Shown: piece by piece, positions 3,001 to 53,067 of the stretch | Layout of the letters: every line of letters begins with the position of its first letter | How positions within the stretch are numbered: position 1 is the stretch's first letter | Translations under genes and position numbers: made by a program | The notes under the pieces: generated by a model | The model's input: the letters and a program-made list of their open reading frames with translations, nothing else | Database searches by the model: none | What the model was told of the DNA's origin: nothing | Virus record (IMG/VR): IMGVR_UViG_3300046387_001331 | Origin: an uncultured virus (IMG/VR IMGVR_UViG_3300046387_001331) | Taxonomy: Duplodnaviria > Heunggongvirae > Uroviricota > Caudoviricetes | DNA length: 64,000 nucleotides | Strand: one strand, 5' to 3'

Positions 3001-4470
3001 CTTTCTTACTCACAGAGTATTTCTGTGTCAAATAGTTACTCAGTTTCTGCTAGTGAATCTTACTCAGAAAGTATATCATACTCACACAGTATTTCTGCTT
3101 CAAATAGTTATTCAGTTTCTGCTAGTGAATCTTACTCACAAAGTGTATCATACTCACCAAGTATTTCAGTTTCACAAAGTGCTTCACTTTCTTACTCACA
3201 AAGTGCTTCTGCGTCAAATAGTTACTCAGTTTCTGCTAGTGAATCTTACTCAGCAAGTATATCATACTCACCAAGTATTTCAGTTTCTCAAAGTGCTTCA
3301 CTTTCATACAGTTCTTCGTTCTCACCAAGTGCTTCAATTTCATACTCACCAAGTGCTTCAATTTCGTATAGTGCATCATACTCACAAAGTATTTCAGTTT
3401 CACAAAGTGCTTCCGTTTCTTATAGTGCATCATACTCACAAAGTATTTCTGCTTCACGAAGTGCTTCATTATCTTATAGTGCTTCGTTCTCACCAAGTGC
3501 TTCACTTTCATACTCACAAACTGTATCACAATCTGCAAGTATTTCATACTCACAAAGTATTTCAGTTTCACAAAGTGCTTCACTTTCTTATAGTGCATCA
3601 TACTCACAAAGTATTTCAGTTTCTCAAAGTGCTTCACTTTCTTACAGTGCTTCGTTCTCACCAAGTGCTTCACTTTCATACTCACAAAGTGCTTCAGTTT
3701 CTGCTAGTGAATCATACTCACAAAGTATTTCGGTTTCTCAAAGTGCTTCACTTTCTTATAGTGCATCATACTCACAAAGTATTTCAGTTTCTCAAAGTGC
3801 TTCACTTTCTTACAGTGCTTCGTTCTCACCAAGTGCTTCACTTTCATACTCACAAACTGCATCACAATCTGCAAGTATTTCATACTCACACAGTGTTTCG
3901 GTTTCTCAAAGTGCTTCGATTTCGTATAGTGAATCATACTCACAGAGTGTTTCATATTCACAAAGTGCTTCAATTTCGTATAGTGCATCGTTCTCACCAA
4001 GTGCTTCACTTTCATACTCACAAACGACATCACAATCTGCAAGTATTTCATACTCACAAACTATTTCTGCTTCTCAGAGTAAATCATATACAGATACTGG
4101 AACTCCATCATTGTCAGGAACACCTTCACAATCTGATACTGATTCACCAACACCTTCTCAGTCGTATACTGCATCACATTCCGACACCGGTACAATTACA
4201 GGAACAGACTCAGGAACACCAACTGCATCAATTTCATATTCAGAATCAGCATCTAACTCATATTCACCCACCGCATCTGCTTCACAAAGTTATTCAAACA
4301 CAATATCACAATCAGCATCTTCATCACTTTCATATTCAGCAACAATTTCTGCTTCACCGAGTGCTTCTTATTCTCAAACTGCGAGTATTTCGTTTACAAG
4401 TAGTGCATCTCAATCTGCTACATCTTCACAAAGTGAATCGATTTCATATAGTGCATCGGCATCTGCATCC
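1..4470 (+). repeat. Low-complexity coding repeat region encoding (Ser-X)n
   Basis: Recurrent units such as caaagtgcttcactttcttatagt and caaagtatttcatactca; interrupted once by a globular domain at ~650-1075. Confidence 0.95.
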
Positions 4471-12500: not shown

Positions 12501-15418
12501 ACACTATTAAAATTTATGTAAACGGAGTTGAATCTGCATCTGAAACAAAAGATGATGGAATTGTTTATCATCCCACAAATAAACTTACATTGGGTCGTGC
12601 GAATTTACTTGGAAGTGATTTTGATCGTTATATGAACGGTGATATATATAATTTCCGATTATGGGATGACGTAGTGTTAAATTCCTCTCAGGTTAATGAA
12701 TTATATGAACTTAGAAATGCCAAGATAGAAACTTGTGATCAAGCAGGAATTGACTTAGGTCAATCAAGTTTCGCAATATCAGAAGATAAGTATATTCTCG
12801 GTAATTTAAGTACAACTGCCCGTAAATTAAAAGTAGATGAAGATTTTACAATTGAATTTCGTGTATCTATAAAAGACTTTGAAATAGCACCAAGTGTTTC
12901 TGATTTGGGAACAGGAAGCAATGCATACGATCCCGTCGGTAATATAGTATTTGCCGGTGCAATGGGAAGTCAGGGAATTGTCGGTGTTGGTATTACAAAA
13001 GAAAAATATTTTTATACAGGATTTGATGGAACGCAAACCAATGTCTTGTTGACATCGAGTACTCCAATTCCATCGTCTTCTAATATTTTTAAATTAAGAA
13101 GTATAAAAGAACGAAGCACAACATCGTCTGGAGCAACTACAAACTATCTAAATACAAGTTCAGATTTATATAAGAATTTAGTAGATGCGTTTAACTTTTG
13201 GAATGATACTGTTGCTTATCCTGATTCGTGGATTGAGTACAAAGGAAGTGCTCAACAAATTGAAATGGATATTTATGTTGAAGATTGGGGTGAAATAAAC
13301 GATGATTTACCTTCAAACGCACAATCTGCTATGCCTGAGAATACTGTTGCCCGTGCGGCTTTCATGAGTGCATCTGGACCAAAAAGTGGTGGTGAATTTT
13401 CGTTTGGAAGTATTTTTCCAGAAGATGGATTTATACGAATTAATAGAAAATTTATTGATGAGGGTCATTTTGATGATATACATGATGGTCATAGTGATAT
13501 GTATTACACAATTCGTCATGAATTAGCACACATACTTGGAATCAATAGCACATTTTTTAATAAATCTGTAATAGCAGATGCACCGATAGGATCATATGTA
13601 GAAGGTGGAAAAACCAAATATTATTACACAGGTAAAAATGGACTTGATGCATATAAAAACGCAATTACAGATGATGGTGTAAGAAGTGGTATTGTTGGTA
13701 TTCCTATTGAAGATGACGGAGGTTCTTCATCTGCGGGTGGTCACTGGGAAGAAGGTGACTCGGCCGATAGATTTATTGATGGTAAATTGCATCCTGGTTT
13801 AGATACTGAGACATTGACTCCGATACATGACGATGAAGATGTATTGAGTGCCATTACTTTAAATGTATTAAAAGATCTTGGTTATCAGGTTGATTTGTCA
13901 AAAGCAGAACCATACAAAATTGGTAGTGGTTCATTGCCTCTTCAATCATCATCATCTAAATTTATGATCGATGAAACACAAAGATCATTAAACACAACTT
14001 ATTCAGTTGCATTGAATTACAGAAGTAATGTTTTAACTTTATTTATCAATGGATATGCAGTAAAACAAAGTGTGGTAATTTTTAATGACGATGCTCACAT
14101 GGATGGTATTGTAGTTGGTGCTAATGATGCATTAGATTATTTTTCATCTAATATAAACATTCAAGATGTAAGAATTGTACAAGAAAGTTTATATGACCGT
14201 GAGTATTATAAACCAAGAAACTTTTTGACTGATGCCTGCGAAAATGTAAAAACACCAACACCAACACCAACATTAACTTATGTAGGAAGAACAATTACAA
14301 TTGCCGAAGTAAAAGTAGATGATGATTCAGAAATGAATAATGTATTTGCAAGAGTTTTTGTAAATGACAGTGGACCTAATCCTGATAGTTCCGATGATTA
14401 TTGGGGTTATTCTGTTAATGGTGGACCGGTTTTAAGAGTTTATGAAGGATTTACTGTTGATTTTACTTATTTAATTGACGGAACACATACATTCAAAGCA
14501 TATTATTTTGTAGCAGATGGAACACAAACTATTGTAACAGATGCATCTGAATTTACAATCAAGTCACCGGAATTAAACGAAAAATGTAATCGTTACCAAG
14601 TAGAACGAACAAAAAATCTATTAAGATCAATTGATATTATTGGGAAGTGTAGTATCGTAGTAACACCAAATTATTTTAAGTATGAAAGCACAGGTTTATC
14701 AGTTCAAACTGCTAATATCGTGGTTAATGATACAGATGGAAATCAATATGTTAATTCAGATTATACATTTAGAAATATCATTGAAGTAACATCAAATACT
14801 GCTTCAAAAAATACAGTGTTGATTATTGATTCTGGAGAAGCAAATGCTGGAAGTCTAAGTAATCTAAGTAAGACAATTAAAATTCAAGCATTTGGTGAAC
14901 CAACTACTGTAAATGGATGGATTGGAGATAATATTGACATAATTACAACTGATATTTCAAACAAAAATTATTTGACTTCAAACAATTCAAGAACATTTGT
15001 AAATCCTGGTGATTGTGAACACGCAAGTCATTATACTGTTGATTTAAGTCATACTGATGTCACACTCAATTCAACACCTCGTTCTGCTTTGTCTTATTTA
15101 AATATGTTGAGCAGTGATATGATTTCAGATGAATTAGAAATTCACACAATTGATAAATCAAATTACAAATTAGTTCCATTGTATTCGTCAAAAGACATAA
15201 TAAGTTCAACATTACTTTCTCAGTCAAAACCAGAAGTTGGATTGCTTCCAAATATTGTATTGGAACTTGACAATGTGGGTGGTGATCCTGCGAATATAAA
15301 TGAAACAAATGATCAACCAAACAGGATATATATAACAACTCTTAACAAACATAACAAAAAATCAAGTTTAATTGTAAACTCTGCAAAAATCATAGTCAAT
15401 AACAACGAAACAAATTAA
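9596..15418 (+). CDS. Giant multidomain virion protein: LamG-like jellyrolls, Gly-rich domain, discoidin-like domain, leishmanolysin(M8)-like zinc peptidase
   Basis: RBS AAGGA at 9584; LamG motifs (YTVESWI, FYHFVISRN, IYIDG, FTGFIQDFRV; VHVVVT, IYVNG, MNGDIYNFRLW); NAFDG discoidin motif; HELAHILG at 13517 with downstream IPIEDDGG...GHWEE...ETLTP. Confidence 0.8.
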   Translation: MAKHSTNKTLFSKKTIEFENGNDYVTISESEDNVISGLNLGKEYTVESWISTTEIPEDPTFTYASDVANALKENSTLTLSGTVNVNDLYESDLLYAVKFDGTEITLKNKTSDKFPVDARILIIEMQALSSGTKSTVGNYEFAEVDSYISDDEIKLKNALTKTFDFTNRLYVVYQKRYEKIVIDRDARIICNSWATNFNEINGLILLCADEIIVQGKIDGNYRGFRGGNSGPHGNYHGGRGEGVVHGLYNNRAMGTNYTGGGGGGYKRSGGGDVGTGGGSGGNASKGYNSNSFEGYYGRGGQRNNYPDGKLFLGGGGGQGAGDGAWPAETCSSRGGNGGRGGGIIILDAENTHIAKFGSIVAKGQMGFGRDRRCSGEPGDGGAGAGGSILFLGNAINQNTGTPINDSNVCAKGGVHRGAGHYYGPAGGLGIIQTGGYHLGWMQGWMGHKFHNCSVIASFARPFGKTGDVDDYNTEKNRHAFLLTAIPFEDGYKLAAGQSHRMMPVSEKLDFDRFYHFVISRNSGSLEAIYIDGKRKGVRTWPSNHVYENSNIMLGANSDNDFENPAPFTGFIQDFRVAQNNMYDCTSYTLGDSSNVPTESCTDPTPSPSKSPSYSKSASASFEFPDGCPTRVVPYWGGTSGGGTRTGPSNLGNAFDGKDATRTGWVGISHSGSWKQDRFYFSDSNKQTPGTLRFYMQGGVNSGYGNRADMYVRYHEYGGDWVYLRNVTNAYMPRDQHFKYEVRVDSVARVDVYWKDRGKGSINYFYWYVDFEQDCYPICDNSIFHIQAKGNEPLKDRSTNEVPIEDGFEGYLPSLPKVPDGIDNPNILMDARFSNVTNLINNATLEGSYSIQGSTPCQQSVRFANSGGYAYFDNWDSKPQTLSFEIDFKINSHSNTATGGADAGSQYILHMQNEEEESHTNGLSLSYGESNKSLSMAVTSEPPSQPTAVTDADALVLGERVHVVVTISSDTIKIYVNGVESASETKDDGIVYHPTNKLTLGRANLLGSDFDRYMNGDIYNFRLWDDVVLNSSQVNELYELRNAKIETCDQAGIDLGQSSFAISEDKYILGNLSTTARKLKVDEDFTIEFRVSIKDFEIAPSVSDLGTGSNAYDPVGNIVFAGAMGSQGIVGVGITKEKYFYTGFDGTQTNVLLTSSTPIPSSSNIFKLRSIKERSTTSSGATTNYLNTSSDLYKNLVDAFNFWNDTVAYPDSWIEYKGSAQQIEMDIYVEDWGEINDDLPSNAQSAMPENTVARAAFMSASGPKSGGEFSFGSIFPEDGFIRINRKFIDEGHFDDIHDGHSDMYYTIRHELAHILGINSTFFNKSVIADAPIGSYVEGGKTKYYYTGKNGLDAYKNAITDDGVRSGIVGIPIEDDGGSSSAGGHWEEGDSADRFIDGKLHPGLDTETLTPIHDDEDVLSAITLNVLKDLGYQVDLSKAEPYKIGSGSLPLQSSSSKFMIDETQRSLNTTYSVALNYRSNVLTLFINGYAVKQSVVIFNDDAHMDGIVVGANDALDYFSSNINIQDVRIVQESLYDREYYKPRNFLTDACENVKTPTPTPTLTYVGRTITIAEVKVDDDSEMNNVFARVFVNDSGPNPDSSDDYWGYSVNGGPVLRVYEGFTVDFTYLIDGTHTFKAYYFVADGTQTIVTDASEFTIKSPELNEKCNRYQVERTKNLLRSIDIIGKCSIVVTPNYFKYESTGLSVQTANIVVNDTDGNQYVNSDYTFRNIIEVTSNTASKNTVLIIDSGEANAGSLSNLSKTIKIQAFGEPTTVNGWIGDNIDIITTDISNKNYLTSNNSRTFVNPGDCEHASHYTVDLSHTDVTLNSTPRSALSYLNMLSSDMISDELEIHTIDKSNYKLVPLYSSKDIISSTLLSQSKPEVGLLPNIVLELDNVGGDPANINETNDQPNRIYITTLNKHNKKSSLIVNSAKIIVNNNETN

Positions 15419-23165: not shown

Positions 23166-23197
23166 AAAGTGGTCATTTTCGGATGACCACTTTTTTT
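23166..23197 (+). terminator. Intrinsic terminator ending the structural operon
   Basis: aaagtggtcat-t-TTCG-g-atgaccacttt plus T run; a smaller tgtca-TTCG-tgaca hairpin lies at 23147-23160. Confidence 0.9.
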
Positions 23198-23265
23198 GCA
23201 TTATTTTCAAATGTTAATAACTTTTTGTTGCAATATACTCAGAACTGTTTCATAGTATATAAATC

Positions 23266-23385
23266 ATGTATATCAATCATTCATTCAAAAGAAGTCGAGT
23301 GGTGAAAACCTAGTCGGAGCAATTCGGCATCGTCCGCAAAACGAAGATATCGTGCGACCCCCTCTTCCCCAGAGGGGGTCTTTTT
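23266..23385 (+). ncRNA. Candidate short structured transcript: 15-codon sORF, GNRA hairpins, terminator
   Basis: Between two terminators; possible promoter TTGCAA(23228)-17-CATAGT; ggt-GAAA-acc; gtcgga-GCAA-ttcggc; tcgt-ccgcaaa-acga. Confidence 0.45.
23356..23385 (+). terminator. Intrinsic terminator
   Basis: gaccccctct-tcccc-agagggggtc, perfect 10-bp stem followed by ttttt. Confidence 0.9.
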
Positions 23386-23427: not shown

Positions 23428-23476
23428 ACTTGTATTGAGAGTGAGAAAAGAGAAAGTTAAAAAAGAGAAAAAAATT

Positions 23477-25065: not shown

Positions 25066-25109
25066 ATATTAGTGCTTGACTTTTACGGGCTATCTGTCAT
25101 ACTAAAGGT

Positions 25110-25359: not shown

Positions 25360-25884
25360 ATGAGAGATAAAAGATACAAAATAAAATCAGGATTAATTGC
25401 GAAAACTCTTGGGATAACTTCCCAAAAAGTTGCCCACCTTAGACAGACACATAAAATGCCTGACTTTGAAACAATAAGTGAATATTATGATTGGTATGTT
25501 GATGTGTATTCAAATCCTGCGAAAAATTCAGTTCCAACGATTAATTCTAATAATCTAGGTAGACCAGAACATGAATCTGTGACTCGGACAATACAAAGAA
25601 ATGAAATTCTATCAGAAATTTTCAGTAAATTGACTGAAAAAGAAATTTCAATTTTAAAAATGAGATATTATCACGATATGTCAGATCGAAGAATTGCCAA
25701 GGAACTTGGAGTTGCCGGTATTAGTCACGAACGGGTTTTTAAAATAATTCAAAAAATAAGAAGAATGAGACTTACAAAAAATCAAATTACATCTGATGAA
25801 ATGTGGAGAGGATATGATCATATTATCAATGGAAAAGTTTCAAGTACACGTGGAGATTGTGGACTTATCCAAAAAGGATTGTGA
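25360..25884 (+). CDS. Sigma70 region-4-like HTH protein
   Basis: LTEKEISILKMRYYHDMSDRRIAKELGV...SHERVFKI resembles sigma region 4; second HTH-like IAKTLGITSQKV at the N-terminus. Confidence 0.7.
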   Translation: MRDKRYKIKSGLIAKTLGITSQKVAHLRQTHKMPDFETISEYYDWYVDVYSNPAKNSVPTINSNNLGRPEHESVTRTIQRNEILSEIFSKLTEKEISILKMRYYHDMSDRRIAKELGVAGISHERVFKIIQKIRRMRLTKNQITSDEMWRGYDHIINGKVSSTRGDCGLIQKGL

Positions 25885-28580: not shown

Positions 28581-28609
28581 TTGACTTTTTATAGAAAATT
28601 TATTAAGAT
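28581..28609 (+). promoter_or_regulatory. Repeated early-type promoter, copy 5
   Basis: TTGACT-17-TAAGAT. Confidence 0.85.
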
Positions 28610-28654
28610 ACTAATTCAAACTGAGAGAATAACAAGAGAAAAAAAATAAAAATT

Positions 28655-29842
28655 ATGAGTGAGATTATAGCAAAAGTAGTTCAAAACAAATCACGATTCA
28701 ACGCAGTTGATTCTGACGGAAACGTCGTCAAGGGAATTTCTGCCGTGATGCGTAAGAAAGCATTTAATAGCAACAAAGCACTTCAACGTGCAATTGGCAA
28801 GACGGGTCGTCCGTTTTGGAGAATGGTTAATATTGAGGAGTTTGTATCTATTGATACCAAGTCTGCTCCTACTACTTCACGTGATGAAGCAAGTATGGAA
28901 ATCAATGAAATTCCTGAGAAGCATAATGAGATTGTTGACTTTCTCAAAAACTGCTTTAATCTCAAACCAAGCAAGTTGTTTATGAATGAAACCAAGTGGA
29001 AGTATTTGGTTCGTTCAGCAGTTCGTGGCAAGAATGTTATGATGACGGGTAACTCCGGTTGTGGTAAAACTCTTGCAAGTAAGACTCTTGCAGAAGTTCT
29101 TGATCGTCCTTTCTTTTATTTTAATCTTGGAGCAACTCAAGATCCTCGTAGTTCTTTGATCGGTAACACTCATTTCAAGAAAGAAACCGGAACCGTGTTT
29201 GCTGAAAGTTCTTTCATCAAAGCAATTCGTACTCCGAATTCTATTATTCTTCTTGACGAATTATCAAGAGCACATCCTGATGCGTGGAACATTTTGATGA
29301 CTCCACTTGATCCTCTTCAACGTTACGTTCGGTTAGACGAATCTGAAGATTCAGAAGTTGTCCCCGTTGCAGACGGAGTTACTTTCGTTGCTACTGCAAA
29401 TGTTGGTAACGAATACACTTCAACCCGAGTAATGGACAGAGCATTGCTTGATCGTTTCGTAACCGTGGAAATGGATGAACTTGAATACGAAGACGAAGTT
29501 GCTCTTCTTAAATTGCTTTATCCTGATGCAGACATCAATATGCTTGGTACGATTGGTGAAATTACCACTCATACTCGCAAGGTTGTTCGTTCTGCTGAAT
29601 CTAAGATTACCGATTCACTTTCAACTCGTAGTGCAGTTGAAATGGCCGGTCTTGCTTATGATGGATTCAATTTGCTTGAAATCGCAGAAGCATCAATTTA
29701 CCCTCACTTTTCTGATGATGGTGGTGCAGATTCGGAAAGAACTTATATGAAGCAATTCGTTCAAAAGTATGTTCAAAACGAAGATACACCTGAAGAACTA
29801 TTTTCTCTCAATCCCGATGAAAATGAATCAGTTCCATACTGA
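28655..29842 (+). CDS. MoxR-family (CbbQ/NorQ/CobS-like) AAA+ ATPase
   Basis: Walker A GNSGCGKT, Walker B ILLDELSR, sensor VATAN, MDRALLDRF arginine finger. Confidence 0.92.
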   Translation: MSEIIAKVVQNKSRFNAVDSDGNVVKGISAVMRKKAFNSNKALQRAIGKTGRPFWRMVNIEEFVSIDTKSAPTTSRDEASMEINEIPEKHNEIVDFLKNCFNLKPSKLFMNETKWKYLVRSAVRGKNVMMTGNSGCGKTLASKTLAEVLDRPFFYFNLGATQDPRSSLIGNTHFKKETGTVFAESSFIKAIRTPNSIILLDELSRAHPDAWNILMTPLDPLQRYVRLDESEDSEVVPVADGVTFVATANVGNEYTSTRVMDRALLDRFVTVEMDELEYEDEVALLKLLYPDADINMLGTIGEITTHTRKVVRSAESKITDSLSTRSAVEMAGLAYDGFNLLEIAEASIYPHFSDDGGADSERTYMKQFVQKYVQNEDTPEELFSLNPDENESVPY

Positions 29843-29854
29843 TTAAGTAATCGG

Positions 29855-29953
29855 CTCTCTCACTCGGTGGGACTCCTTTCTCTCGGGAGTCCCACCTTTT
29901 CTTTCTCTCACTCGGTGGGACTTCTATTCTCTCGGAAGTCCCACCTTTTTTTT
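29855..29953 (+). terminator. Tandem duplicated terminator hairpins (two ~48-nt units)
   Basis: ggtgggactcc/ggagtcccacc (29866-29896) and ggtgggacttc/gaagtcccacc (29914-29945) with a compensatory C-G to T-A change; T8 tract after the second. Confidence 0.9.
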
Positions 29954-29992
29954 GAACTTGATTTTATTTCAAAATAGTTTATATTATATTAA

Positions 29993-30259
29993 ATGAAAAT
30001 AGAGATTGAAAATAAAAGTGGAAAATATACATGGGAATCTTCCCACGATGATTATGATATTTATACATTGGCTGAACACATAAAAGGATTATTGGTAAGT
30101 GCTGGATTTCATCCAGAAAATGTTGATGAAATATTTGATGAATATTCAGTCAGTAGATGGAATTTAAATAAAGAGTCAGAAAAATCTCTTAATGATTTTG
30201 ATGATGATTTTTCAATTGAAGAAACTCAACAAGAAGTTACTGCTGAAACTTTAAAGTAA
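29993..30259 (+). CDS. Hypothetical protein
   Basis: 88-aa ORF; GLLVSAGFHPENV. Confidence 0.7.
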   Translation: MKIEIENKSGKYTWESSHDDYDIYTLAEHIKGLLVSAGFHPENVDEIFDEYSVSRWNLNKESEKSLNDFDDDFSIEETQQEVTAETLK

Positions 30260-32180: not shown

Positions 32181-32209
32181 TTGACTTTTTATAAGAATTT
32201 TGGTAATAT
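32181..32209 (+). promoter_or_regulatory. Repeated early-type promoter, copy 6
   Basis: TTGACT-17-TAATAT. Confidence 0.85.
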
Positions 32210-32955: not shown

Positions 32956-33004
32956 ATTTGTATTGAGAGTGAGAAAAGAGAAACTAAAATAAGGAGAGAA
33001 AAAA

Positions 33005-34311: not shown

Positions 34312-37176
34312 ATGAAAATAACACTATTAACAATCGTTGCATTGTTTCTTCCGTTGATCGGTTTTGCAGTTGATACCGATGGAGACGGAATGACTGATGT
34401 AGCAGAACTCAAATATGGATTTGATCCAAATGATGCAGATAGTTTCCCACAATCGTTTTATGTGGGTGATGTGTCAGAGAGATCACAAAGTTTAGATGGA
34501 AAACTAGGAACTGAAGATGACATTGCTTATTATAGTTTCAGAAGTTACGAAGACGAAAGTACAATTGAAAAATGCAAGGACTTTATCAATAAAGTTCTTC
34601 CGATTATGTATTATCGGTTGGGTCATCCTGCAAATACTATGACGATAGAATTTTGGAAAAGATACCCAACAAATTCAGGATGGATGACATTAATAAGTTC
34701 TAATCCAAAGATTTTGTCAGATGGTAGTTTTGATCCTAGATTGATCGTACATGAAATGTTTCATGCTTGGACTGGAAAGCACAATACTACTGCCCGAACT
34801 ATCAATAACAAACTTGGTAGATACGATCCTATATTTACTGGATGGGAAGAAGTTGCAGAAGGAGTCTGTCAGGAAATTATAATAGATTTTACAGAGGCAT
34901 ATCCAACAGATTCTGCAAATGGACCAATCAGAAATATGGGATTTTGGGTTACTGCATATAAGAAAGATTTACAAAAACATTTAGAGTGGACTCATGGTGG
35001 TGCATTTCATGTTGATGGACTAACTTCAAATGATAGATACACCATATCAGCAGGTGTTGCTCAGAAATTTATGATTGCCGATGAGCAATTTTACAAAAAG
35101 TTTTTTGAAAAATATTATGCAGAAATTCATGCTGATTCGAATTACAGAGTTACATCAGAAAAAATGATCAATCTGTATTCGTCAGTTCTTCCGCAAGTAA
35201 ATGATGTTTCTACCGAAAAGATTTTAAGTATTATTCCATCACTTAGAGGAACAAAGTTACCTAACAAGTTTCAGAGTGTTGTAAGAGAAAACCGTAGATT
35301 TAATTCAAGTCTTCAAGTATTCTGCGGATTTGCTGATTCAAAAAAAGGTGAATTATGGTGGTCATCTAGTATTAAAAGTAACGCAGAAAAAGCAAGTCAC
35401 GGAATTCCTTCTTGGTTTCCAACATTTCATGCAAGTGATGGATACTTTTACACCGACACTCGTAATGAAGAGTATGTTTTAAACATCAAGAAGTTGAATG
35501 GTGAGTTGGTAACAGAGATTAAAGGAGAAGTAAGTGCCGGTACTAGGAACGATGGAGGACCAATGAATGTAGCACATGATTCACCTTCTGCTTCATACGC
35601 ATCAAATTTTGATCTTGGTTTATACAAAGCAAATGTTGCTTTTCCACGATTCAAGAATTTCACCGAAGATTACATTTCAGAAGATGTTTACTACTTTGGG
35701 TTGAAAGGAACAAACACTCGTTCAAAAAATCGTAGAGCATATATTGGAATAGATACAAATGCTTCTGTTTCCGAAATTAAATTGAAAATTGGTGATGAAG
35801 TATTTCTTCCAAACAGAGTTGGTGATAATGTGGTTGAAATTTACATGGATTCTATTCCTTGGAATTTTCGTGGAGAAGCAGAAATCATTATAACTTCCGA
35901 AGAAAATGTATCACATACATTCAAAAAAACACTTTCTTATTTAACATCACCCGATAAACCAAAAATCGGTATTGTGAAATGGTTGATCGTGGATGTTAAC
36001 TTTGATGGAGTTGAAGATATGTATGGAAGTGCTTCTGATAACGAAGAAGTTATCGTAGATGATACCACTACACCAGTTGTAGACAATAATGATACTGAGG
36101 TTGTTGTAGATGCTCCTAAAGAAGATGATACCACAACTCCAATTGTAGACAATAATGATACTGAGGTTGTTGTAGATGCTCCTAAAGAAGATGATACCAC
36201 AACTCCTATTGTAGACAATAATGATACTGAGGTTGTTGTAGATGCTCCCAAAGAAGATGATACTGAGGTTGTCGTAGATACTCCTAAAGAAGTTGTTGCA
36301 GAAGATTCATTGAACTTCAAAGTAACTCACAAAGACGGAGTTATTAAGTTCACTTGGAATGCTGACTTTGAAAGTCACATTGCTGACGAAAGATTTCTAC
36401 ACGTATGGTGGTCAAAACTAGGACCTTTACAAGGAACTCTTATTTATGGTGGTCATGCACATAATTCTGCTGAGTTTGAACTTGCAAAATATAACTTCAA
36501 CGGAACTGAGACAATCGGAATTGATGTTTTGGATTACTTCAATAACCATTATGTTAGAAAAGGTTTGAAACCATTTGAAGTTAACTTGGCAGATGTAATT
36601 GCAAATTCAACTGAACAAGAAGTTGTGGAGAATGATACAACTCCAAATGTAGACAATAATGATACTGAGGTTATTGTAGATACTCCCAAAGAAGATGATA
36701 CAACTCCAATTGTAGACAATAATGATACTGAGGTTGTTGTAGATGCTCCTAAAGAAGATGATACCACAACTCCAATTGTAGACAATAATGATACTGAGGT
36801 TGTTGTAGATGCTCCTAAAGAAGATGATACCACTAACGAAGTGGTTCGTAAAGCACCCGAGTTACCACCTGTTGTTACAAATGCGTGGGATTCTGCAACT
36901 GATGTGGGTAACAATTGGTTCTTCGTAGAGTGGTTCGGATACTTCTACAAAGTAGAAGGTAATGGTTGGGTGTTCAACGAAAAACTCGGATGGTTTTACA
37001 CCGAGTGGACATCATCATTCAATTCAGTTTGGTTGTTCCATGAAGATTTAGGTTGGGTTTGGACTACAAGTGAGTTCTTTCCATACCTTTACAATCCAAA
37101 GACTGCATCTTGGGTATACATAGTAGAAGGTGGGTTCTTTGACTTCAATACCAATGAATGGAAAGTTTCGGAATAA
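34312..37176 (+). CDS. Secreted zincin-like (HExxH) protein with acidic repeats and Trp-rich C-terminal domain
   Basis: Signal peptide MKITLLTIVALFLPLIGFA; DTDGDGMTD Ca-binding motif; IVHEMFHAW...WEEVAEG; C-terminal WFGYFY...LGWFY...LGWVW...FPYLY. Confidence 0.75.
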   Translation: MKITLLTIVALFLPLIGFAVDTDGDGMTDVAELKYGFDPNDADSFPQSFYVGDVSERSQSLDGKLGTEDDIAYYSFRSYEDESTIEKCKDFINKVLPIMYYRLGHPANTMTIEFWKRYPTNSGWMTLISSNPKILSDGSFDPRLIVHEMFHAWTGKHNTTARTINNKLGRYDPIFTGWEEVAEGVCQEIIIDFTEAYPTDSANGPIRNMGFWVTAYKKDLQKHLEWTHGGAFHVDGLTSNDRYTISAGVAQKFMIADEQFYKKFFEKYYAEIHADSNYRVTSEKMINLYSSVLPQVNDVSTEKILSIIPSLRGTKLPNKFQSVVRENRRFNSSLQVFCGFADSKKGELWWSSSIKSNAEKASHGIPSWFPTFHASDGYFYTDTRNEEYVLNIKKLNGELVTEIKGEVSAGTRNDGGPMNVAHDSPSASYASNFDLGLYKANVAFPRFKNFTEDYISEDVYYFGLKGTNTRSKNRRAYIGIDTNASVSEIKLKIGDEVFLPNRVGDNVVEIYMDSIPWNFRGEAEIIITSEENVSHTFKKTLSYLTSPDKPKIGIVKWLIVDVNFDGVEDMYGSASDNEEVIVDDTTTPVVDNNDTEVVVDAPKEDDTTTPIVDNNDTEVVVDAPKEDDTTTPIVDNNDTEVVVDAPKEDDTEVVVDTPKEVVAEDSLNFKVTHKDGVIKFTWNADFESHIADERFLHVWWSKLGPLQGTLIYGGHAHNSAEFELAKYNFNGTETIGIDVLDYFNNHYVRKGLKPFEVNLADVIANSTEQEVVENDTTPNVDNNDTEVIVDTPKEDDTTPIVDNNDTEVVVDAPKEDDTTTPIVDNNDTEVVVDAPKEDDTTNEVVRKAPELPPVVTNAWDSATDVGNNWFFVEWFGYFYKVEGNGWVFNEKLGWFYTEWTSSFNSVWLFHEDLGWVWTTSEFFPYLYNPKTASWVYIVEGGFFDFNTNEWKVSE
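36061..36290 (+). repeat. 66-bp coding tandem repeat (DTTTPIVDNNDTEVVVDAPKED), block 1
   Basis: About three near-identical units plus a partial unit. Confidence 0.9.
36634..36834 (+). repeat. 66-bp coding tandem repeat, block 2
   Basis: Three units matching block 1. Confidence 0.9.
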
Positions 37177-39039: not shown

Positions 39040-39402
39040 ATGAAAATCACAAAAGAAAAACTTAAGGAAATGATTCAAGTAGAACTTGAACACATCAACG
39101 AAGGAATGAGCAAACGAGAAGGTGCAGAGGTTATCAAGCAACTCGGAGGTGGTCGTTTCATCGCAATGACAGGTGCCAAAGACTTCTTTATTGGACCAAA
39201 AGGTGTTGTATTTAAAATCGGAAGAAATTCAAAAGGTGTGAATTATGTTCGCATCAATTTGAATAGTATGGACACTTACGATGTTGAGTATCTTTCAGTT
39301 AGAGCATATAAAGAAAAAGTAAAAAGCACATCAAAAGGAATTTATGCGGATATGCTTCGTGATTCATTTGAAGCAAACACAGGACTCAGAACATCATTAT
39401 GA
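39040..39402 (+). CDS. Putative internal head protein
   Basis: MKITKEKLKEMIQVEL...INE leader plus LGGGRFIAMTGAK cargo domain. Confidence 0.65.
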   Translation: MKITKEKLKEMIQVELEHINEGMSKREGAEVIKQLGGGRFIAMTGAKDFFIGPKGVVFKIGRNSKGVNYVRINLNSMDTYDVEYLSVRAYKEKVKSTSKGIYADMLRDSFEANTGLRTSL

Positions 39403-39905
39403 AAATTTCAAAAGAACAACTAAAACAAATCGTTCGTGAAGAACTTAAAAATTTATCAGAAAAAGAAGTATCTTTGTCGGGTAAAGAAGTTGCTAACCGA
39501 ATTAAAAACTCTAAAGACAAAAATCATAAAATGTTTTTCGGCAAAAAGGCATTAGAAGCAATTGCAAAGAAAAGCAAACTTACTGCAAAAGAACTTGATC
39601 ATATGTTACCTGATTATATTCCGGGTAACTTAATACACGGATTGTTCACAGAAGCAGAAGTAAATGAAATGCGTCCACACGTTTCCAAAGATTTGCCGGG
39701 TGAAACAATTTGGCAACATATTTCAGATCATTACGATTGGGAAGATTATCTTGGTAAAGGTGGAATGAGGGAACTTGAAAAATCATTAAAGAAAATGAAA
39801 CGAGTAAAACCTCAACAACTTGATCAAATGCTTCCTGGATATATTCCTGCTGACGAAATATACGACATTTTTAGAAACTCACTTGCGATAGGACCAACCG
39901 AATGA
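39399..39905 (+). CDS. Putative internal head protein with duplicated domain
   Basis: MKISKEQLKQIVREEL leader; LDHMLPDYIP and LDQMLPGYIP repeats separated by VNE. Confidence 0.65.
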   Translation: MKISKEQLKQIVREELKNLSEKEVSLSGKEVANRIKNSKDKNHKMFFGKKALEAIAKKSKLTAKELDHMLPDYIPGNLIHGLFTEAEVNEMRPHVSKDLPGETIWQHISDHYDWEDYLGKGGMRELEKSLKKMKRVKPQQLDQMLPGYIPADEIYDIFRNSLAIGPTE

Positions 39906-40468
39906 AAATTTCAAAAGACAAACTTAAAGAAATAGTTCGTGAAGAACTTGCTTCTATCACAGAAAACAAAAACAAGTTTTTTATTGTTGATCCAACCGGT
40001 ATGCGTGGAGAACCTGCTTATTACAGAAGAAAAAGTACAAACGATGATTCAGCATTTGAGTTTTCCACATTATTCGGAGCAACTGGATTTGATGACAAAG
40101 GAAGTGCAAACACTACAATGAGACGGATCAAAAGTTCTTCATCAAAATATCGCAGAGCAACATTAAAGGTATTGCGTGGTGATGAACTTCACGAAGAAGT
40201 AAATGAAAATCGTGCATTGGACAATGCTATTGCTAATCGTGATGCCAATCGTGCAAATCGCAAAGGAATTGAACAATACCAAGATTTGTATTTTGGTTTA
40301 CAAAAACTAATAAGTAAAGTATCCAAAAACAATAAAGTAAAAGGATACGGTGGTGAATTAACTCACGCATTCGTTGATTTACTTTGGGCAGTTGAAGATG
40401 ATCGTCTTGCAGTTGGTGAAATATTTAATGCACTTAAAAAAGTAAGAAGTAAGATTTCCGAAAAGTGA
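39902..40468 (+). CDS. Putative internal head protein
   Basis: MKISKDKLKEIVREEL...ITE leader; LHEEVNE internal site. Confidence 0.65.
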   Translation: MKISKDKLKEIVREELASITENKNKFFIVDPTGMRGEPAYYRRKSTNDDSAFEFSTLFGATGFDDKGSANTTMRRIKSSSSKYRRATLKVLRGDELHEEVNENRALDNAIANRDANRANRKGIEQYQDLYFGLQKLISKVSKNNKVKGYGGELTHAFVDLLWAVEDDRLAVGEIFNALKKVRSKISEK

Positions 40469-41499
40469 AAATAACCAAACAAAAACTCAAAGAAATTGTT
40501 CGTGAAGAACTTGCTCAATTACAAGAAGGTAAGTTTTACGTAAAATCATTTAGTAATAGTTACGATGAAATGTATCTTGGAAACGATGGAAAGTTCACAG
40601 ACTTTCAAAATAGTAAAACATTCAGCAAAGCAAGTGATGCTCAAAAAGTAGCAAAAAAGCACAAATCAAAAGGTGCGATTGCAGTTGTTGATTTCTCTGG
40701 TAAATCTGTAAAGTTTGCGGAAAATATAAACGAAGCAAAGATTTCTCCTGCTGACAAAAAGCAATTTCAATCAGATGCTCAAGAAATTCTTGATAATTTC
40801 ATAAAAGCAAAGTTGGTTACCAAAGATACAGAATTTCACGTAGTCAAAAATAGTCTACGTCATGTTTTTAGTGCGATAGCAAATGGTGAGGGTAATGCAA
40901 ACTATAATAAAGTTAAAAAGTATATGCCAAAAAAACTTAACAATGATTTGTACGACAACGGAGAAAAAAATTCATATGATAGTGTTTGGTTTTCTATGAA
41001 TGATGCTCAACGTGAAACCATTTTTTTGAAAGCAATTCGTGCAAAAAAATTAAATTTGTCGGAAGATGCAATCAATGAAGATCAATACGGAGATGTTTCT
41101 TTTTCTCGTAGAAAACTTAAACTTGCGTGTGAAGACTCTGAAAGCATTCTTCAGTTGTTGGCAAATAAAGCAGAAGATGATGAACTTCCAAATTGGTGGA
41201 AAGACAAAGTAAGCAAAGCAGCCGATTATCTTAATATTGCACGTGATTATCTCGCAACGGATTCTCATACAGATGCAATCCACGAAGATACTGAAAAAGA
41301 ATTTCCAATTTGGGGAATTCCACCCGGAAAAAACTCAGAAGAATTATTATACACAAAAGCAACTTCTCATTCACAAGCAAAAAAGATTGCGAAAGTTCTT
41401 ACTGATAAGCACGGATGCAAAAAAGTGAGAATACAAACATTAGATTTGGCACAAAATCCTGCGGACATATTTAAGTCTGATAAAATATTCAATAAATAA
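40465..41499 (+). CDS. Putative internal head polyprotein
   Basis: GTG start; KITKQKLKEIVREEL...LQE leader; INE, INE, IHE sites separate four segments. Confidence 0.65.
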   Translation: MKITKQKLKEIVREELAQLQEGKFYVKSFSNSYDEMYLGNDGKFTDFQNSKTFSKASDAQKVAKKHKSKGAIAVVDFSGKSVKFAENINEAKISPADKKQFQSDAQEILDNFIKAKLVTKDTEFHVVKNSLRHVFSAIANGEGNANYNKVKKYMPKKLNNDLYDNGEKNSYDSVWFSMNDAQRETIFLKAIRAKKLNLSEDAINEDQYGDVSFSRRKLKLACEDSESILQLLANKAEDDELPNWWKDKVSKAADYLNIARDYLATDSHTDAIHEDTEKEFPIWGIPPGKNSEELLYTKATSHSQAKKIAKVLTDKHGCKKVRIQTLDLAQNPADIFKSDKIFNK

Positions 41500-42641: not shown

Positions 42642-44771
42642 ATGAAAACCATAGTTTATGTGCTTTTAGGGCTACTTGTGAGCTTGCCGGTGTGGTCTAA
42701 TGAAACACCGCCGGAAAGAATTAACGCAGAGGAATTACGTGAAATTTCTCAGAAAAGAAAAGTTGTTATTATCATCAACAAAGAAGGAAAACAACTTGAA
42801 GGAAAGGTATTAGAGTATGACGGTGAGTCGGTATTATTTCAACGACAGAAAGATTTACAATTATTTCGTTTTGATTTAACTGGTTTAGCACAACAATCGC
42901 AACGTATGATTAAAGACAATTATATGACTGCGAATTATAATGTTCCAAAATTACAAAGACCACTTCAAGAAAATCAAATCAAGAAGTTCGCTGCATATGC
43001 AGACAATTTGGTGTTGGAAAAACTTCGTAGTGAAAAACAAAGACCAACCCGTGATGTAGATGATTATACTTTTATGCGTAGAGCATATCTTAAAATCATT
43101 GGTCGCATTCCAAATAAAGCAGAAATTGAAGAATTCAAAAAAGAAATGCGTGGAAACAAACTTAAATTAATCAATAAGTTATTGGATAGTGAAGGTTACA
43201 TTAATCATCAGTTAAATTATTATAGTGATATTCTTCGTATTCAGAATAAATTAAATAATACTAATATCAATAGTGGATTTCGTTATCGTGAATGGGTTCG
43301 CAATGAAATTCGTAATAATACTCCGTTTGATGAAATGGTGCAAAAATTAATTGCATCAGAAGGTGCTTATTATGAACCAGGAAGTGAACCAATTGGTTTT
43401 TATTTGCGTGATCGTGGTATGCCATTGGATAATCTTGCAAACACGGTACAAGTGTTTCTTGGAACTCGTTTAGAATGTGCTATGTGTCACGATCATCCAT
43501 TTGATAAATGGACACAAAAGCAGTTTTATGAAATGGCTGCATTTACAGATGGAGTAAGTCGTGTTCAATATCGTGAGAACTCAAAACTCGTTGGAGATTT
43601 CAATCGTATTGTTCGTAACGATAAAACAGAAGATGTTGGAACACTAAATCAATATCGCAATTATATTCGTGACATTATGGGTTATGGATTAAATGATAAT
43701 CTCGGTAAAGGAACAATTAAACTTACAGATGCTTTTATGGAAGATGACGCAAAACCAGGTGACACTCTTCTTGCAAAAGCAATATTTGCTCCACCATTGG
43801 AAATTGAAAAAACTGATACACTTCCACAAAGTCGCAAACAATTTGCAGAATGGATTACATCAGAAGCAAATCCAAGATTTACTACTGTTATTGTAAATCG
43901 TTTATGGAAACGAGCATTTGGAATTGGTTTGATTGAACCGGTTGATGATATGAACGATAATACTCAATCAAGTAATCCTCAGTTACTTGCGTATCTTGAA
44001 AAAATAATGGCATCAGTTGATTATGATGTTAAAGAATTTATGCGAGTATTATATAGTATGGACTTGTTTACACGTGATAGTGTTAAAGATGACCACAAAG
44101 GAGTAGAAACATTTTATTTTGCAGGACCACCACTTCAACGAATGAAAGGTGAGCAAATATGGGATTCACTTGTAACATTGGTATACAACGATATTGATTC
44201 ACCTGATCGTTTTCCGAGCAATTACGATGAAAAGTATCAAGCAGTTTATGATCGTTACAAAGAGTATACTGCTCAAGAAATTTATGATGAACTCAAAGAG
44301 TATCTTGCTAATACAGAAAAACCAAGTCGCAATCTTGCAGAAGTAGTTCAGCAATTAAACGAAGAAGAAGGAAGATACAAATCAAAACAACTTAAAGACA
44401 GAGATTTAATTCGTAGTAGTTATGTAGGTTATCCACCACCCGGTGGGCATCTTATTCGTCAGTTTGGTGGAAGTGACAAAGCACTTATTGAAAACTCAAA
44501 CTTTGAAGCAACTACACCACAAGTATTGAATATGTTGAATGGTTTCGTGGAAAAAAGAATTATCAATAATAAGAATGCTGATTTTATGAAGCAGATGGCA
44601 CAAGAAAATCGTGAAACCGGAAAAATTGAAGACATCTTTATGAGCATTCTTAATCGTAAACCAACTTCAACAGAAATGAAATTACTTAAAAAATATATTG
44701 ACGAACCAAACGGTGCAAAACATATTGCGTGGATTTTAATGAACTCCCACGAATTTATTTTCATTCGTTAA
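42642..44771 (+). CDS. DUF1549/DUF1553-domain protein (PVC-type, secreted)
   Basis: Signal peptide; DDYTFMRRAYLKIIGRIP, FLGTRLECAMCHDHPFDKWTQKQFY, NPRF...VNRLWKRAFGIGLIEPVDD, WILMNSHEFIF. Confidence 0.9.
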   Translation: MKTIVYVLLGLLVSLPVWSNETPPERINAEELREISQKRKVVIIINKEGKQLEGKVLEYDGESVLFQRQKDLQLFRFDLTGLAQQSQRMIKDNYMTANYNVPKLQRPLQENQIKKFAAYADNLVLEKLRSEKQRPTRDVDDYTFMRRAYLKIIGRIPNKAEIEEFKKEMRGNKLKLINKLLDSEGYINHQLNYYSDILRIQNKLNNTNINSGFRYREWVRNEIRNNTPFDEMVQKLIASEGAYYEPGSEPIGFYLRDRGMPLDNLANTVQVFLGTRLECAMCHDHPFDKWTQKQFYEMAAFTDGVSRVQYRENSKLVGDFNRIVRNDKTEDVGTLNQYRNYIRDIMGYGLNDNLGKGTIKLTDAFMEDDAKPGDTLLAKAIFAPPLEIEKTDTLPQSRKQFAEWITSEANPRFTTVIVNRLWKRAFGIGLIEPVDDMNDNTQSSNPQLLAYLEKIMASVDYDVKEFMRVLYSMDLFTRDSVKDDHKGVETFYFAGPPLQRMKGEQIWDSLVTLVYNDIDSPDRFPSNYDEKYQAVYDRYKEYTAQEIYDELKEYLANTEKPSRNLAEVVQQLNEEEGRYKSKQLKDRDLIRSSYVGYPPPGGHLIRQFGGSDKALIENSNFEATTPQVLNMLNGFVEKRIINNKNADFMKQMAQENRETGKIEDIFMSILNRKPTSTEMKLLKKYIDEPNGAKHIAWILMNSHEFIFIR

Positions 44772-44801
44772 TTTTAAAAACTAGAAAAGGAAAAAAATAA
44801 A

Positions 44802-46085
44802 ATGGAAAACCTATTAAAAGACGAACTCTCAAGAAGAGGATTTATCACAGGCATGGCAAAATCTTGTCTTGGTGTTAGTGCAATCTTAGGAGCAGAAGAT
44901 TTACTTGCTTATGAAATACCTGGTAAAACTGCATCTGCTCGTCACGTTATCTTTTTGTATATGGCAGGTGGAATGACTCATATTGATACATTTGATCCTA
45001 AACCTGAAAATAAGGATGTTATGGGTGAAACAACTGCTATCAATACATCTGCTGATGGAGTTCAGTTGGGTAATTGGTTACCAAATACTGCAAAGCAAAT
45101 GCACAATGCGGCTTTGATTCGTAGTTTGACAAGTAATCAAGGAGCACACCAACAAGCAAACTATTTGCTTCATACTTCTTATCAACGTAGAGGAACTATC
45201 AAACATCCTACGTTGGGAAGTTGGGTAAGTCGTTTATCAGGTAAATTGAATCGCACTCTTCCTGCTCACGTTCGTATCAACGGAGGAAGTGATGTATTAG
45301 GTGCGGGATTCTTGGAAAGCAAACATGGACCTCTTCCATTGGGCAATCCAAGTAGTGGAATTCAGAATGTTAAGGCAGCCGGTTATCTTGAGCAATCATT
45401 ATACACACAACGTCTTCATACTGCACAAGAATTTAACAAAATGTTTCTTGGTGAATACTCTCAAAAACAAGTACGTGCGTACACAGACTTATATAACGAT
45501 GCAGTAAAGTTGATGAGCAGTAAAGACCTTGAAGCATTTGATCTTACAAAAGAAACTGAAGCAACCCGTGAACTTTACGGAGAAAATAACTTTGGACAAG
45601 GATGTTTGCTTGCTCGTCGTTTAGTTGAAACTGGTGTTCGTTTTGTTGAAGTTCAACTTGGTGGTTGGGATATGCACAACGGAGTATTTGACGGAATGGC
45701 AACACGTGGTGCAACACTTGACCAAGGATTATCAGCACTTCTTTCTGATCTTGAAAGAACCGGTAAAATAGATGACACTATGGTTGTTGTAGCAAGTGAG
45801 TTCGGAAGAACACCTGAAGTTAAAGCAGGTCGTATCGGACGTGACCACCACCCAACTGCTTTTAGTGCTATGCTTGCTGGTGGAGGAATTAAAGGTGGAA
45901 CTGTTTACGGATTAAGTGACGAAAGAGCACACTATGTAGAAGAAGAAGGTTCATCCGTTGAAGACCTCAATGCTACCATTGCTCATGCTCTTGGTCTTAA
46001 ACTTGAAGAAATACATTACTCACCGAGTGGACGTCCATTCAAGGTAGCACACGATGGTAAGGTTTTGAATAAGATTCTTGTTTAA
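44802..46085 (+). CDS. DUF1501-domain protein with Tat signal
   Basis: LSRRGFI; VIFLYMAGGMTHIDTFDPKP, FGQGCLLARRLVETGVRFVEV, GWDMH, SEFGRTP, GRDHH. Confidence 0.92.
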   Translation: MENLLKDELSRRGFITGMAKSCLGVSAILGAEDLLAYEIPGKTASARHVIFLYMAGGMTHIDTFDPKPENKDVMGETTAINTSADGVQLGNWLPNTAKQMHNAALIRSLTSNQGAHQQANYLLHTSYQRRGTIKHPTLGSWVSRLSGKLNRTLPAHVRINGGSDVLGAGFLESKHGPLPLGNPSSGIQNVKAAGYLEQSLYTQRLHTAQEFNKMFLGEYSQKQVRAYTDLYNDAVKLMSSKDLEAFDLTKETEATRELYGENNFGQGCLLARRLVETGVRFVEVQLGGWDMHNGVFDGMATRGATLDQGLSALLSDLERTGKIDDTMVVVASEFGRTPEVKAGRIGRDHHPTAFSAMLAGGGIKGGTVYGLSDERAHYVEEEGSSVEDLNATIAHALGLKLEEIHYSPSGRPFKVAHDGKVLNKILV

Positions 46086-51378: not shown

Positions 51379-52059
51379 ATGAGAGAAAGTTCTAAGACAA
51401 CATTAGAAAAGTATAATAAGGGCATTACTATGCATTTTGCAAAAAGTAAGTATGACAACTGCAAGTGGAACAAAAGCACAAGTACATGGAGTATGCTCAA
51501 ACGAAGATACGACAATGGCCAAAGAGACTCACAAATGCAAAAATTGTACGATGCAGAGTACTCACTTATTCCGTGTTCTCCTAAAGATAATTTTACTTTC
51601 GATGAATTAATTCAAAAAATAGACGATGTAGTAAATGATACATGGTTTCGTAAAAAATTCGGAAGACTTTTCTCGGATACAATATTACAAGTAGAAAATG
51701 CAAGTTCTCGTCAAAATATGGCATATTCTTTTGGAACTGATTTTCTTTCATTTCCACCTCACTTTTGTAATTTTCCTATTATACTCCATGAACTAGCACA
51801 TACTATTGCTGATCGTTTGCAGTTCGTTGTTGCATTTAATTACAATTACACCACTCACGGAAGAATGTTTGCTTTTATTTATCTTGAACTCGTAAGAAAG
51901 TTTATGGGTGAATCCAGTTATACTATTCTTAAAGCAGGATATAAAAACTTTAATGTTAAGTATCGCAATCGTATTCCACAAACTTCTGCGAAAAAGAAGA
52001 TTTTACGTGAAAGAATTGGTAAATATAATATTTATAATAATGAAAACAATATTTCATAA
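51379..52059 (+). CDS. HExxH metallohydrolase (SprT/TIGR04338-like)
   Basis: RDSQMQKLYDAE, IILHELAHT, HGRMF. Confidence 0.7.
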   Translation: MRESSKTTLEKYNKGITMHFAKSKYDNCKWNKSTSTWSMLKRRYDNGQRDSQMQKLYDAEYSLIPCSPKDNFTFDELIQKIDDVVNDTWFRKKFGRLFSDTILQVENASSRQNMAYSFGTDFLSFPPHFCNFPIILHELAHTIADRLQFVVAFNYNYTTHGRMFAFIYLELVRKFMGESSYTILKAGYKNFNVKYRNRIPQTSAKKKILRERIGKYNIYNNENNIS

Positions 52060-52634: not shown

Positions 52635-52745
52635 AAACTCTTTAATTATAGTAAAAAATATAATATTTATTATAATTATAAAAAGTCCTTCATAAAGAAG
52701 GCACGTTTTCAATTAAGAAAACATAGAACATAAGGAAATAGCAAA

Positions 52746-52979
52746 ATGAAAGCAATATTCGAAAAAGTAAATGGATTCGTTAAGGGCTTGACTGGTATTT
52801 TTCTCGGAGTCGTAGGACTCGGAGTTGCTGGTCAAATCGTTCTTGGTGATAAAGTTGGACTCGATGTTATCGGTAACCTTCAAGGTATCGTTGACGGGTT
52901 CGTTGGTGAAGGTGCAAGTCTTGCAGGTTTAATTACTCTGCTTGTAGTTTTAGCATTGATCGCTGGTGACGACAAGTAA
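52746..52979 (+). CDS. Small two-TM membrane protein
   Basis: RBS TAAGGA; Gly-rich hydrophobic helices; own promoter motif and terminator. Confidence 0.8.
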   Translation: MKAIFEKVNGFVKGLTGIFLGVVGLGVAGQIVLGDKVGLDVIGNLQGIVDGFVGEGASLAGLITLLVVLALIAGDDK

Positions 52980-53029: not shown

Positions 53030-53067
53030 TGTACCCCTTTCCTTATGGTCTGGGGTACATTTCTTTT
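53030..53067 (+). terminator. Intrinsic terminator with anti-RBS loop
   Basis: tgtacccc-tttccttatggtct-ggggtaca then tttctttt. Confidence 0.8.

Follow-up and report, generated by a model that had tools for sequence, protein, structure and literature searches.

Conserved pyrimidine-rich segments complementary to 5' leaders in a tandem terminator downstream of an ATPase gene in an uncultured marine phage

The window analysed here, i.e. the whole stretch of 64,000 nucleotides, appears to belong to a large uncultured marine phage in which nearly all ORFs lie on the + strand and the G+C content is about 34%. It encodes ClpP, a DNA ligase, UvdE, a sigma-70 region 4 protein and many small ORFs. The best named protein match was to Microcystis phage Mel-JY01 (51.6%), and a megablast search of the locus against phage records returned no match. 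Two giant ORFs open the window: the first (1-9582, > 3193 aa) consists largely of 18-nt (6-aa) serine-rich repeats and the second (9596-15418, 1940 aa) contains Laminin_G_3 and a leishmanolysin-like region. Tandem repeats of 66 nt occur within a 978-aa ORF (35991-36899), and four consecutive genes (39040-41499) have similar 65-nt starts, i.e. paralogous N-termini. Two genes at 42642-46085 encode PSCyt2/PSD1 (DUF1549/DUF1553) and DUF1501 domains, which are usually found in Planctomycetes-type bacteria; in a phage such cargo is unusual, and it could point to the host.

The ATPase gene on which this study centres (Table 1) is transcribed from a copy of a promoter that recurs along the window. The sequence TTGACTTTTTATA was found in 16 exact copies on the + strand (23399-56270, e.g. 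46748, 54719 and 56242), and 26 copies were found at up to two mismatches against a mean of 9.1 expected, a number that none of 100 shuffles reached. This conserved cassette comprises TTGACT, a fixed AT-rich 17-nt spacer with TGG and a TAGTAT-like -10 box, followed about 7 nt further on either by the tag TTGAGAGTGAGAAAAGAG or directly by an ATG, the latter implying leaderless messages. At least seven genes are apparently leaderless (25110, 25360, 28323, 41542, 51379, 53526 and 54123), while 5' tags similar to the example in Table 1 lie behind the promoters at 32181, 32927, 46748, 54719 and 56242. One of the leaderless genes (25360-25884), preceded by a conserved promoter, encodes a 174-aa protein with sigma-70 region 4 matches that is a candidate phage sigma-like factor. 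We rejected GAGAG as the general ribosome-binding site of this phage, as just 8 of 74 starts are preceded by it, each of these lying behind the conserved promoter; the k-mer enrichment near starts is due to the leader tags. Where a Shine-Dalgarno (SD) sequence is present in the window it is of the TAAGGA type, and the ATPase gene of the window clade has none. A similar AUGAGA-type 5' tag was observed in distant relatives. Pattern scans of IMG/VR with the promoter 29-mer and with the terminator hairpin gave 0 matches each.

Table 1. Positions of the terminator element, the ATPase gene and the related features in the window.
Feature	Position	Strand	Basis or remark
Shared 5' tag TTGAGAGTGAGAAAAGAGAAAG behind a conserved promoter	23435..23457	+	example
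Sigma-70-like ATPase promoter: TTGACT, 17 nt, TAAGAT	28581..28609	+	exact TTGACTTTTTATA copy
ATPase mRNA leader island ACTGAGAGAATAA	28620..28632	+	complements loop 2 (9 nt) and 5' flank (7-8 nt)
AAA_5 (MoxR/CobS-like) ATPase gene, 395 aa	28655..29842	+	Pfam AAA_5 (E 8e-18), PHROGs phrog_249
Unpaired C/U-rich 5' flank GGCTCTCTCACTC	29853..29865	+	sequence, fold, relatives
Terminator hairpin 1: 12 pairs (8 G-C), loop TTCTCTC	29866..29896	+	
Spacer TTTTCTTTCTCTCACTC: decayed hairpin-1 U-tract plus duplicated 5' flank	29897..29913	+	
Terminator hairpin 2: 12 pairs (7 G-C), loop ATTCTCTC	29914..29945	+	
Hairpin-2 U8 tract (T8 tail)	29946..29953	+	
Promoter-like site TTGATT, 16 nt, TATATT, with ATG of next gene (29993), apparently leaderless	29958..29995	+	
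Leaderless start ATGAGAGAAAG, 7 nt past -10 box	51379..51392	+	others at 25360, 53526, 54123
SD region (contains CATAAGGAAA) and start of 77-aa gene 52746-52979	52727..52748	+	
Second terminator, loop TTTCCTTATGGTCT	53030..53067	+	own gene's SD region complemented

The element behind the ATPase gene occupies 29853-29953 on the + strand, i.e. 11-111 nt past the stop codon (29840-29842), with hairpin 1 beginning 24 nt past it. Both stems are G+C-rich, contain 11 Watson-Crick pairs plus a closing U-G, which is within the range of intrinsic terminators (about 5-14 pairs), and close short loops (7 and 8 nt); each is followed by a U-tract, that of hairpin 1 being the tail TTTTCTTTCT directly after the stem. 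The two hairpins have folding energies of -24.2 (hairpin 1) and -22.5 kcal/mol (hairpin 2), and a 131-nt fold reached an MFE of -50.7 kcal/mol (z = -8.0), with none of 200 shuffles equally stable. A sequence-only reading of this DNA had proposed a tandem terminator with 11-bp stems kept by a compensatory change, and both statements agree with our results: the anatomy is canonical, relatives show compensatory stem changes (see below), and the sole stem difference between the two copies is a compensatory replacement of C-G by U-A at stem position 10. Its description of all unpaired segments as CU-rich is likewise borne out by the fold and the sequence. The position that it gave for the motif of loop 2 (29925-29933) was correct, but T29925 is the closing U of the stem and not part of the loop. 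On its sequence and predicted fold, 29866-29953 is first of all a genuine tandem Rho-independent terminator. It resembles such terminators of bacteria and phages in its G+C-rich 12-pair stems, 7-8-nt loops and U-tracts, in the arrangement of two in series, and in its position just past a stop codon on the coding strand. Unlike usual tandem terminators, it has a flank, loops and a spacer made of conserved C/U repeats on a purine-rich strand, and distant relatives have a large-loop hairpin at this site, in many cases without a U-tract.

Elsewhere on the + strand of the 64 kb, strong hairpins with a U-tract were found at 23166, 23356 and 53030, and weaker ones at 47360 and 54999. Because strong + strand terminators are so few, the tandem terminator is likely where transcripts from all six conserved-type promoters upstream, at 23.4-28.6 kb (23399, 25076, 25322, 25904, 28285 and 28581), come to an end. 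Near the first of these, two terminators enclose about 180 nt of apparently non-coding sequence (23200-23385). This stretch contains a promoter-like site, its 3' end is a strong U-tract hairpin with the loop TCCCC, and it could encode a small RNA or a 15-codon peptide. The GAACTTGAT motif of the promoter-like site downstream of the tandem terminator (Table 1) also occurs in the relatives L008 and L010. Assembled metatranscriptome contigs from four runs (X15, X16, X17 and X19) span the ATPase gene and its downstream neighbour; they end at 29862, 29844 and 29840 and restart at 30005 and 30034, contig edges that say nothing about RNA ends or a small fragment. One X17 contig joins 29900 to 29957, as in a single-hairpin variant, and may derive from DNA carried in the library. 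Some further roles for the site were considered: a small hairpin, TCTCAC/GTGGGA, was rejected as an antiterminator, since its 6 pairs would be no competitor for the 12-pair stem; a Rho-utilisation site formed by the C-rich segments is unlikely beside two strong intrinsic terminators; and pairing of the loop with the start of the downstream gene would involve only 6 nt that are not kept in relatives.

The sequence-only reading had also held that the unpaired parts of the terminator are antisense to early-gene leaders, and every motif position quoted in it proved exact when re-scanned. The exact complement to loop 2, GAGAGAATA, occurs at 28623 and 32242; GAGAGAAAG occurs at 51381, 53534 and 54131, and GAGAGAAA additionally at 32994, 47077 and 54795. 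Five promoter copies contain GAGTGAGA (23439, 32967, 46788, 54759 and 56282), which is found besides in the region of the ATPase start codon (28657) and within coding sequence (63857). At its three positions GAGAGAAAG forms codons 1-4 of genes that seem to be leaderless and is no ribosome-binding site, and the own-leader site of loop 2 is located 24-32 nt upstream of the ATPase start codon, again not at the ribosome-binding site. The start of the ATPase gene, ATGAGTGAGA, is complementary to TCTCACTC of the 5' flank (8 nt, at the start codon). In a sliding duplex scan of 12,753 windows, ranks 1-5 were all leader tags (-18.0 to -19.6 kcal/mol) and 10 of the 15 best windows were 5' tags behind the conserved promoter, including a variant promoter at 25076; the spacer (29897..29913) gave the strongest antisense match to leader tags (-18 to -19.6 kcal/mol). 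The antisense claim therefore stands as a statement about sequence, but not for the exact 9-mers. When the 3' end was cofolded with nine leaders, ddG ranged from -16.8 to -30.0 kcal/mol, compared with -5.75 +/- 3.15 kcal/mol (minimum -17.9) for random 60-nt windows.

The mean best duplex of the unpaired segments with 16 leaders was -14.3 kcal/mol, against -6.3 kcal/mol for 400 background + strand windows. Composition-matched shuffles, the control suggested by the sequence-only reading, gave a divided answer: the real segments beat mononucleotide-shuffled ones (-10.2 +/- 1.5 kcal/mol; a fraction of 0.006 of 500 as good), but 42 of 400 dinucleotide-preserving segment shuffles were as good (-13.1 +/- 0.9 kcal/mol). 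Reversed segments reached -13.5 kcal/mol, and dinucleotide-preserving shuffles of the leaders -10.5 +/- 0.6 kcal/mol (0 of 400 as good). Since dinucleotide-matched and reversed controls pair nearly as well as the real segments, low complexity explains most of the exact matches; the complementarity is real, but it is one of CU-repeat against GA-repeat content and not of exact 9-mers. The point needing explanation is the presence of CU repeats at the terminator at all: five of the six + strand occurrences of TCTCTC in the 64 kb fall within 29804-29933, GAGAGA occurs 16 times in the window, and the + strand is otherwise purine-rich. Loop 1 matches its own 5' region over 7 nt (8 of 78 other gene starts as good) and loop 2 its own leader over 9 nt (1 of 78 as good), although pairing of the full 9 nt is sterically doubtful because the loops are only 7-8 nt long. 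In the window clade the own ATPase leader is not the best predicted partner, the tags of other transcripts scoring better.

A metagenome scan with the ATPase yielded five close relatives with 86-95% aa identity (L081, 95%; L082, 94%; L083 and L085, 92% each; L084, 86%). A hairpin directly past the ATPase stop codon is kept in all five, as a single hairpin in L081 and L084 and as a tandem like that of the window in L082, L083 and L085, and two stem positions show compensatory change among them. In L081 and L084 the DNA downstream of the hairpin is unrelated and the hairpin is still found with the ATPase gene, which indicates that the module belongs to this gene. All six clade members share an unchanged flank TCTCTCA and loop end CTCTC, and the 5' half of the loop is variable among relatives (TTT, TAT, TAC or TTC). 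The leader island ACTGAGAGAATAA is itself invariant in the window and the five close relatives, with variation in the flanking leader; a variable loop facing an invariant island means that the exact 9-mer is not maintained. It is particular to the window, the close relatives keeping a 6-8-nt core. The long spacer match is present in tandem forms only: the top match in the 7-kb locus is a tag in the three tandem relatives (-15.1 to -17.6 kcal/mol), and single-hairpin relatives show weak tag complementarity (-8.8 to -10.1 kcal/mol). The loops of the window clade match the ATPase leaders of their own clade over 6.8 nt (-8.9 kcal/mol) versus 4.2 nt (-3.8 kcal/mol) for those of the other clade. Covariation of loop and leader, which had been proposed as a check, is seen as a clade-level fit, but not for the exact 9-mer.

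Beyond this clade, 196 relatives of the ATPase were confirmed in IMG/VR and 586 in metagenomes, on contigs that reach about 270 kb, most of them at around 55% identity. Of 133 distinct downstream sequences, 46 contain a hairpin with a loop of at least 9 nt and at least 75% C/U, and a loop core, TTCCTTT, is at least 90% conserved in the distant relatives. A covariance model (R1) built from ten of these hairpins was searched against the window and L001-L099 (100 of 161 sources, 684 kb). It gave 44 hits, all on the + strand, 35 of which lie within about 110 nt past the ATPase stop codon, 7 a further 170-730 nt on and 2 upstream; no hit was obtained in the window or its close relatives in this 684-kb search, because their loops are short. 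In the R1-fitted alignment, 9 of 10 stem pairs show compensatory change on both sides and 98.5% of the alignment cells pair; the corresponding values were 61.7% for shuffles and 41-58% with the partner column slid. This covariation identifies the distant-relative hairpin as a real structured RNA that is conserved and has a fixed loop. Rfam 15 at the gathering score detected nothing at the site or at homologous sites (window and the loci of 11 relatives), its only matches elsewhere in those loci being a tRNA and a manA RNA, and low-threshold Rfam scans of the terminator site gave nothing credible.

The distant relatives also bear on which RNA the pyrimidines may pair with. A TCTC-type motif lies within 22 nt past the stop codon in 18 of 130 distinct distant relatives, compared with 0.8% of background windows. 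In 18 motif loci the ATPase gene has an SD-like GGA; among all genes of the locus, its own 5' UTR gave the strictly longest perfect complement to the loop in 12 of them and shared first place in 2 (2.6 expected). These perfect matches to the own SD are 8-13 nt long, overlie the SD and end 1-17 nt before the start codon, and loop variants follow variants of the own SD region, e.g. in L028, L008 and L078. An own-versus-cross-locus permutation for the 5' UTR gave p of about 0.004, a statistic that ignores shared descent. The loop is also retained in those distant relatives, about half of the total, whose ATPase gene is leaderless; in 19 loci with a leaderless or SD-less ATPase gene the own 5' region was best in 1 (3.0 expected). 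A downstream AAAGGA-type site often complements the loop at such leaderless or SD-less loci, typically over 7 nt and over 13 nt in L003. Among distant relatives, matches to the downstream AAAGGA are longer within than across loci (6.72 vs 6.30 nt; p = 0.004, again ignoring shared descent), with no difference in energy (p = 0.58), and pairing of the loop with a downstream AAAGGA in distant relatives is a secondary possibility.

By the criteria used, only three hairpins in the window come directly after an ORF, i.e. the two of the ATPase gene and one at 53030. The loop of the latter, TTTCCTTATGGTCT, is perfectly complementary over 10 nt to the SD region of the gene that it follows, a match that 1 of 78 other starts equals. 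The product of this gene (52746-52979) is a hydrophobic, glycine-rich protein of 77 aa. A general rule that post-gene hairpin loops pair with the own 5' UTR found no support: in the relatives' loci the own 5' UTR was best in 1 and tied in 2 of 31, with 3.8 expected.

The reading that we prefer, at a little below an even chance, is that a 3' module embedded in the terminator base-pairs with 5' leaders, chiefly in cis in the manner of icaR. The tandem terminator would end the ATPase mRNA together with nested transcripts from the six upstream promoters, and the site would represent the local version of a 3'-UTR RNA module that is conserved across the family and always accompanies the AAA+ ATPase gene. 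This module may expose single-stranded pyrimidines, in the flank just past the stop codon and in the hairpin loop, that are complementary to purine-rich 5' regions, namely the SD in distant relatives and the GAGAG-type tag in the window clade. From the anatomy, conservation, stem covariation and complementarity observed here, we infer that the 3' module could base-pair with the 5' leader of the same mRNA, and that such 5'-3' pairing would limit translation initiation and/or alter decay. The invariant CU motifs and the preference for the own SD in distant relatives favour a pairing function.

In icaR of Staphylococcus aureus, a pyrimidine motif of the 3' UTR pairs with the SD of the same mRNA (PMC3868564). 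The phage element is like icaR in that a 3' pyrimidine motif complements the own 5' leader, with the SD as putative target in distant relatives and at 53030-53067. It differs from icaR in that the motif lies in or beside the terminator hairpin and not in a long 3' UTR, and in that the window clade, with no SD at the ATPase gene, has its complement in 9 nt of a GAGAG leader island and 8 nt at the start codon. In the phage, pairing, RNase III cleavage and a translational effect are putative. The literature searched gave no example of a phage mRNA whose 5' and 3' ends pair, in a search not aimed specifically at such cases.

That the element is a plain tandem terminator, its pyrimidines kept for termination, RNA stability or recent descent and its leader match a low-complexity coincidence, appears unlikely; it nevertheless remains a serious rival because the dinucleotide-matched controls pair nearly as well as the real segments. 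The reversed segments and the lack of conservation of the exact 9-mers point the same way, the strongest match (the spacer) is a by-product of duplication that is absent in single-hairpin relatives, post-gene hairpin loops of this phage family are generally about 75% pyrimidine, and the leader tags may be conserved for promoter reasons. Such a terminator would, however, not readily account for the clustering of five of six TCTCTC at 29804-29933 on an otherwise purine-rich strand, for a loop at least 90% fixed across relatives whose stems have fully turned over, for the own SD as best partner in 12 of 18 leadered relatives, or for the 10-nt own-SD match at the second terminator (53030). Another reading, to which we give a low probability, takes the pyrimidines as a binding platform for a protein (S1, Hfq or a phage RNA-binding protein), as a decoy resembling the anti-SD end of 16S rRNA or as inverted copies of a DNA operator shared with the +1 region of the promoters. 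A loop that stays fixed on covarying stems typically is one that is recognised, leaderless ATPase genes retain the motif too, GAGAG/CTCTC is equally an inverted DNA repeat, and the pyrimidine motif presumably resembles the anti-Shine-Dalgarno core of 16S rRNA. The analysis identified no candidate protein, however, and loop variants that track own SD-region variants (L028, L008 and L078) would be expected from pairing but not from a fixed protein site.

Pairing may also act in trans, a stable double-hairpin 3' fragment of about 100 nt blocking translation of tag-bearing and leaderless genes, which would amount to the early shut-off envisaged by the sequence-only reading; we consider this quite improbable. 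The best targets in the window are indeed tags of transcripts that end elsewhere (32216, 32956, 56271, 54746, 53516 and 54116), and the make-up is sRNA-like, with seed-like unpaired stretches, a terminator hairpin and a U8 tail. RNAIII/RsaE-type sRNAs have C-rich loops, and the element is like 3'-UTR-derived or pyrimidine-loop sRNAs in having loops that complement ribosome-binding regions, a location at an mRNA 3' end and a long U tail. The nearest weak Rfam hit was CcsR1, an sRNA with anti-SD-like loops, but at 16.3 bits against a gathering score of 65.3 the element is not a member of the CcsR/cuckoo RNAs (RF02791); its motif is CUCUC/UUCCUUU and not that of CcsR. Terminator loops of sRNAs can drive regulation, as for SdsR, RseX and ArrS, E. 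coli sRNAs that act in trans on fepA through their terminator loops, likely without base pairing (PMC11979758). The likeness is that an intrinsic terminator loop is proposed to carry regulatory information. Against a trans-acting RNA stand the lack of an internal promoter between 28581 and 29958 among the best 60 of 93 sites and of any identified processing site, as well as the same low-complexity caveat. It is weakened further by the single-hairpin relatives with their weak tag complementarity, and by the distant relatives, whose best partner is their own SD and not other genes of the locus. On these comparisons, 5'-3' pairing in cis appears better supported than early shut-off in trans.

Regulation through 3' UTRs in bacteria is still thinly documented. 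If the 3' module does pair with leaders, terminators would double as translational or stability controls in a large group of uncultured marine phages, and the terminator sequence would track the phage's own leader code; if it does not, the site is an ordinary tandem terminator of unusual composition. It is conceivable, but rather improbable, that we are dealing with an uncatalogued, widespread RNA module of large marine phages whose pyrimidines co-evolve with the leader code (an SD, or the GAGAG tag plus leaderless AUGAGAGA starts), and whose duplicated form would be a master regulator in cis and in trans, closing tag-bearing and leaderless messages.

Two further RNA structures were noted in the loci of distant relatives. 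In L050, L054, L057, L063, L065 and L078 another conserved structure precedes the CU-loop hairpin within the first ~80 nt past the stop codon, a long-range helix formed from a repeated CCTCCGAGG-containing box. The manA RNA (RF01745, 65.1 bits) is located at L006:54-251, about 3 kb upstream of the ATPase gene.
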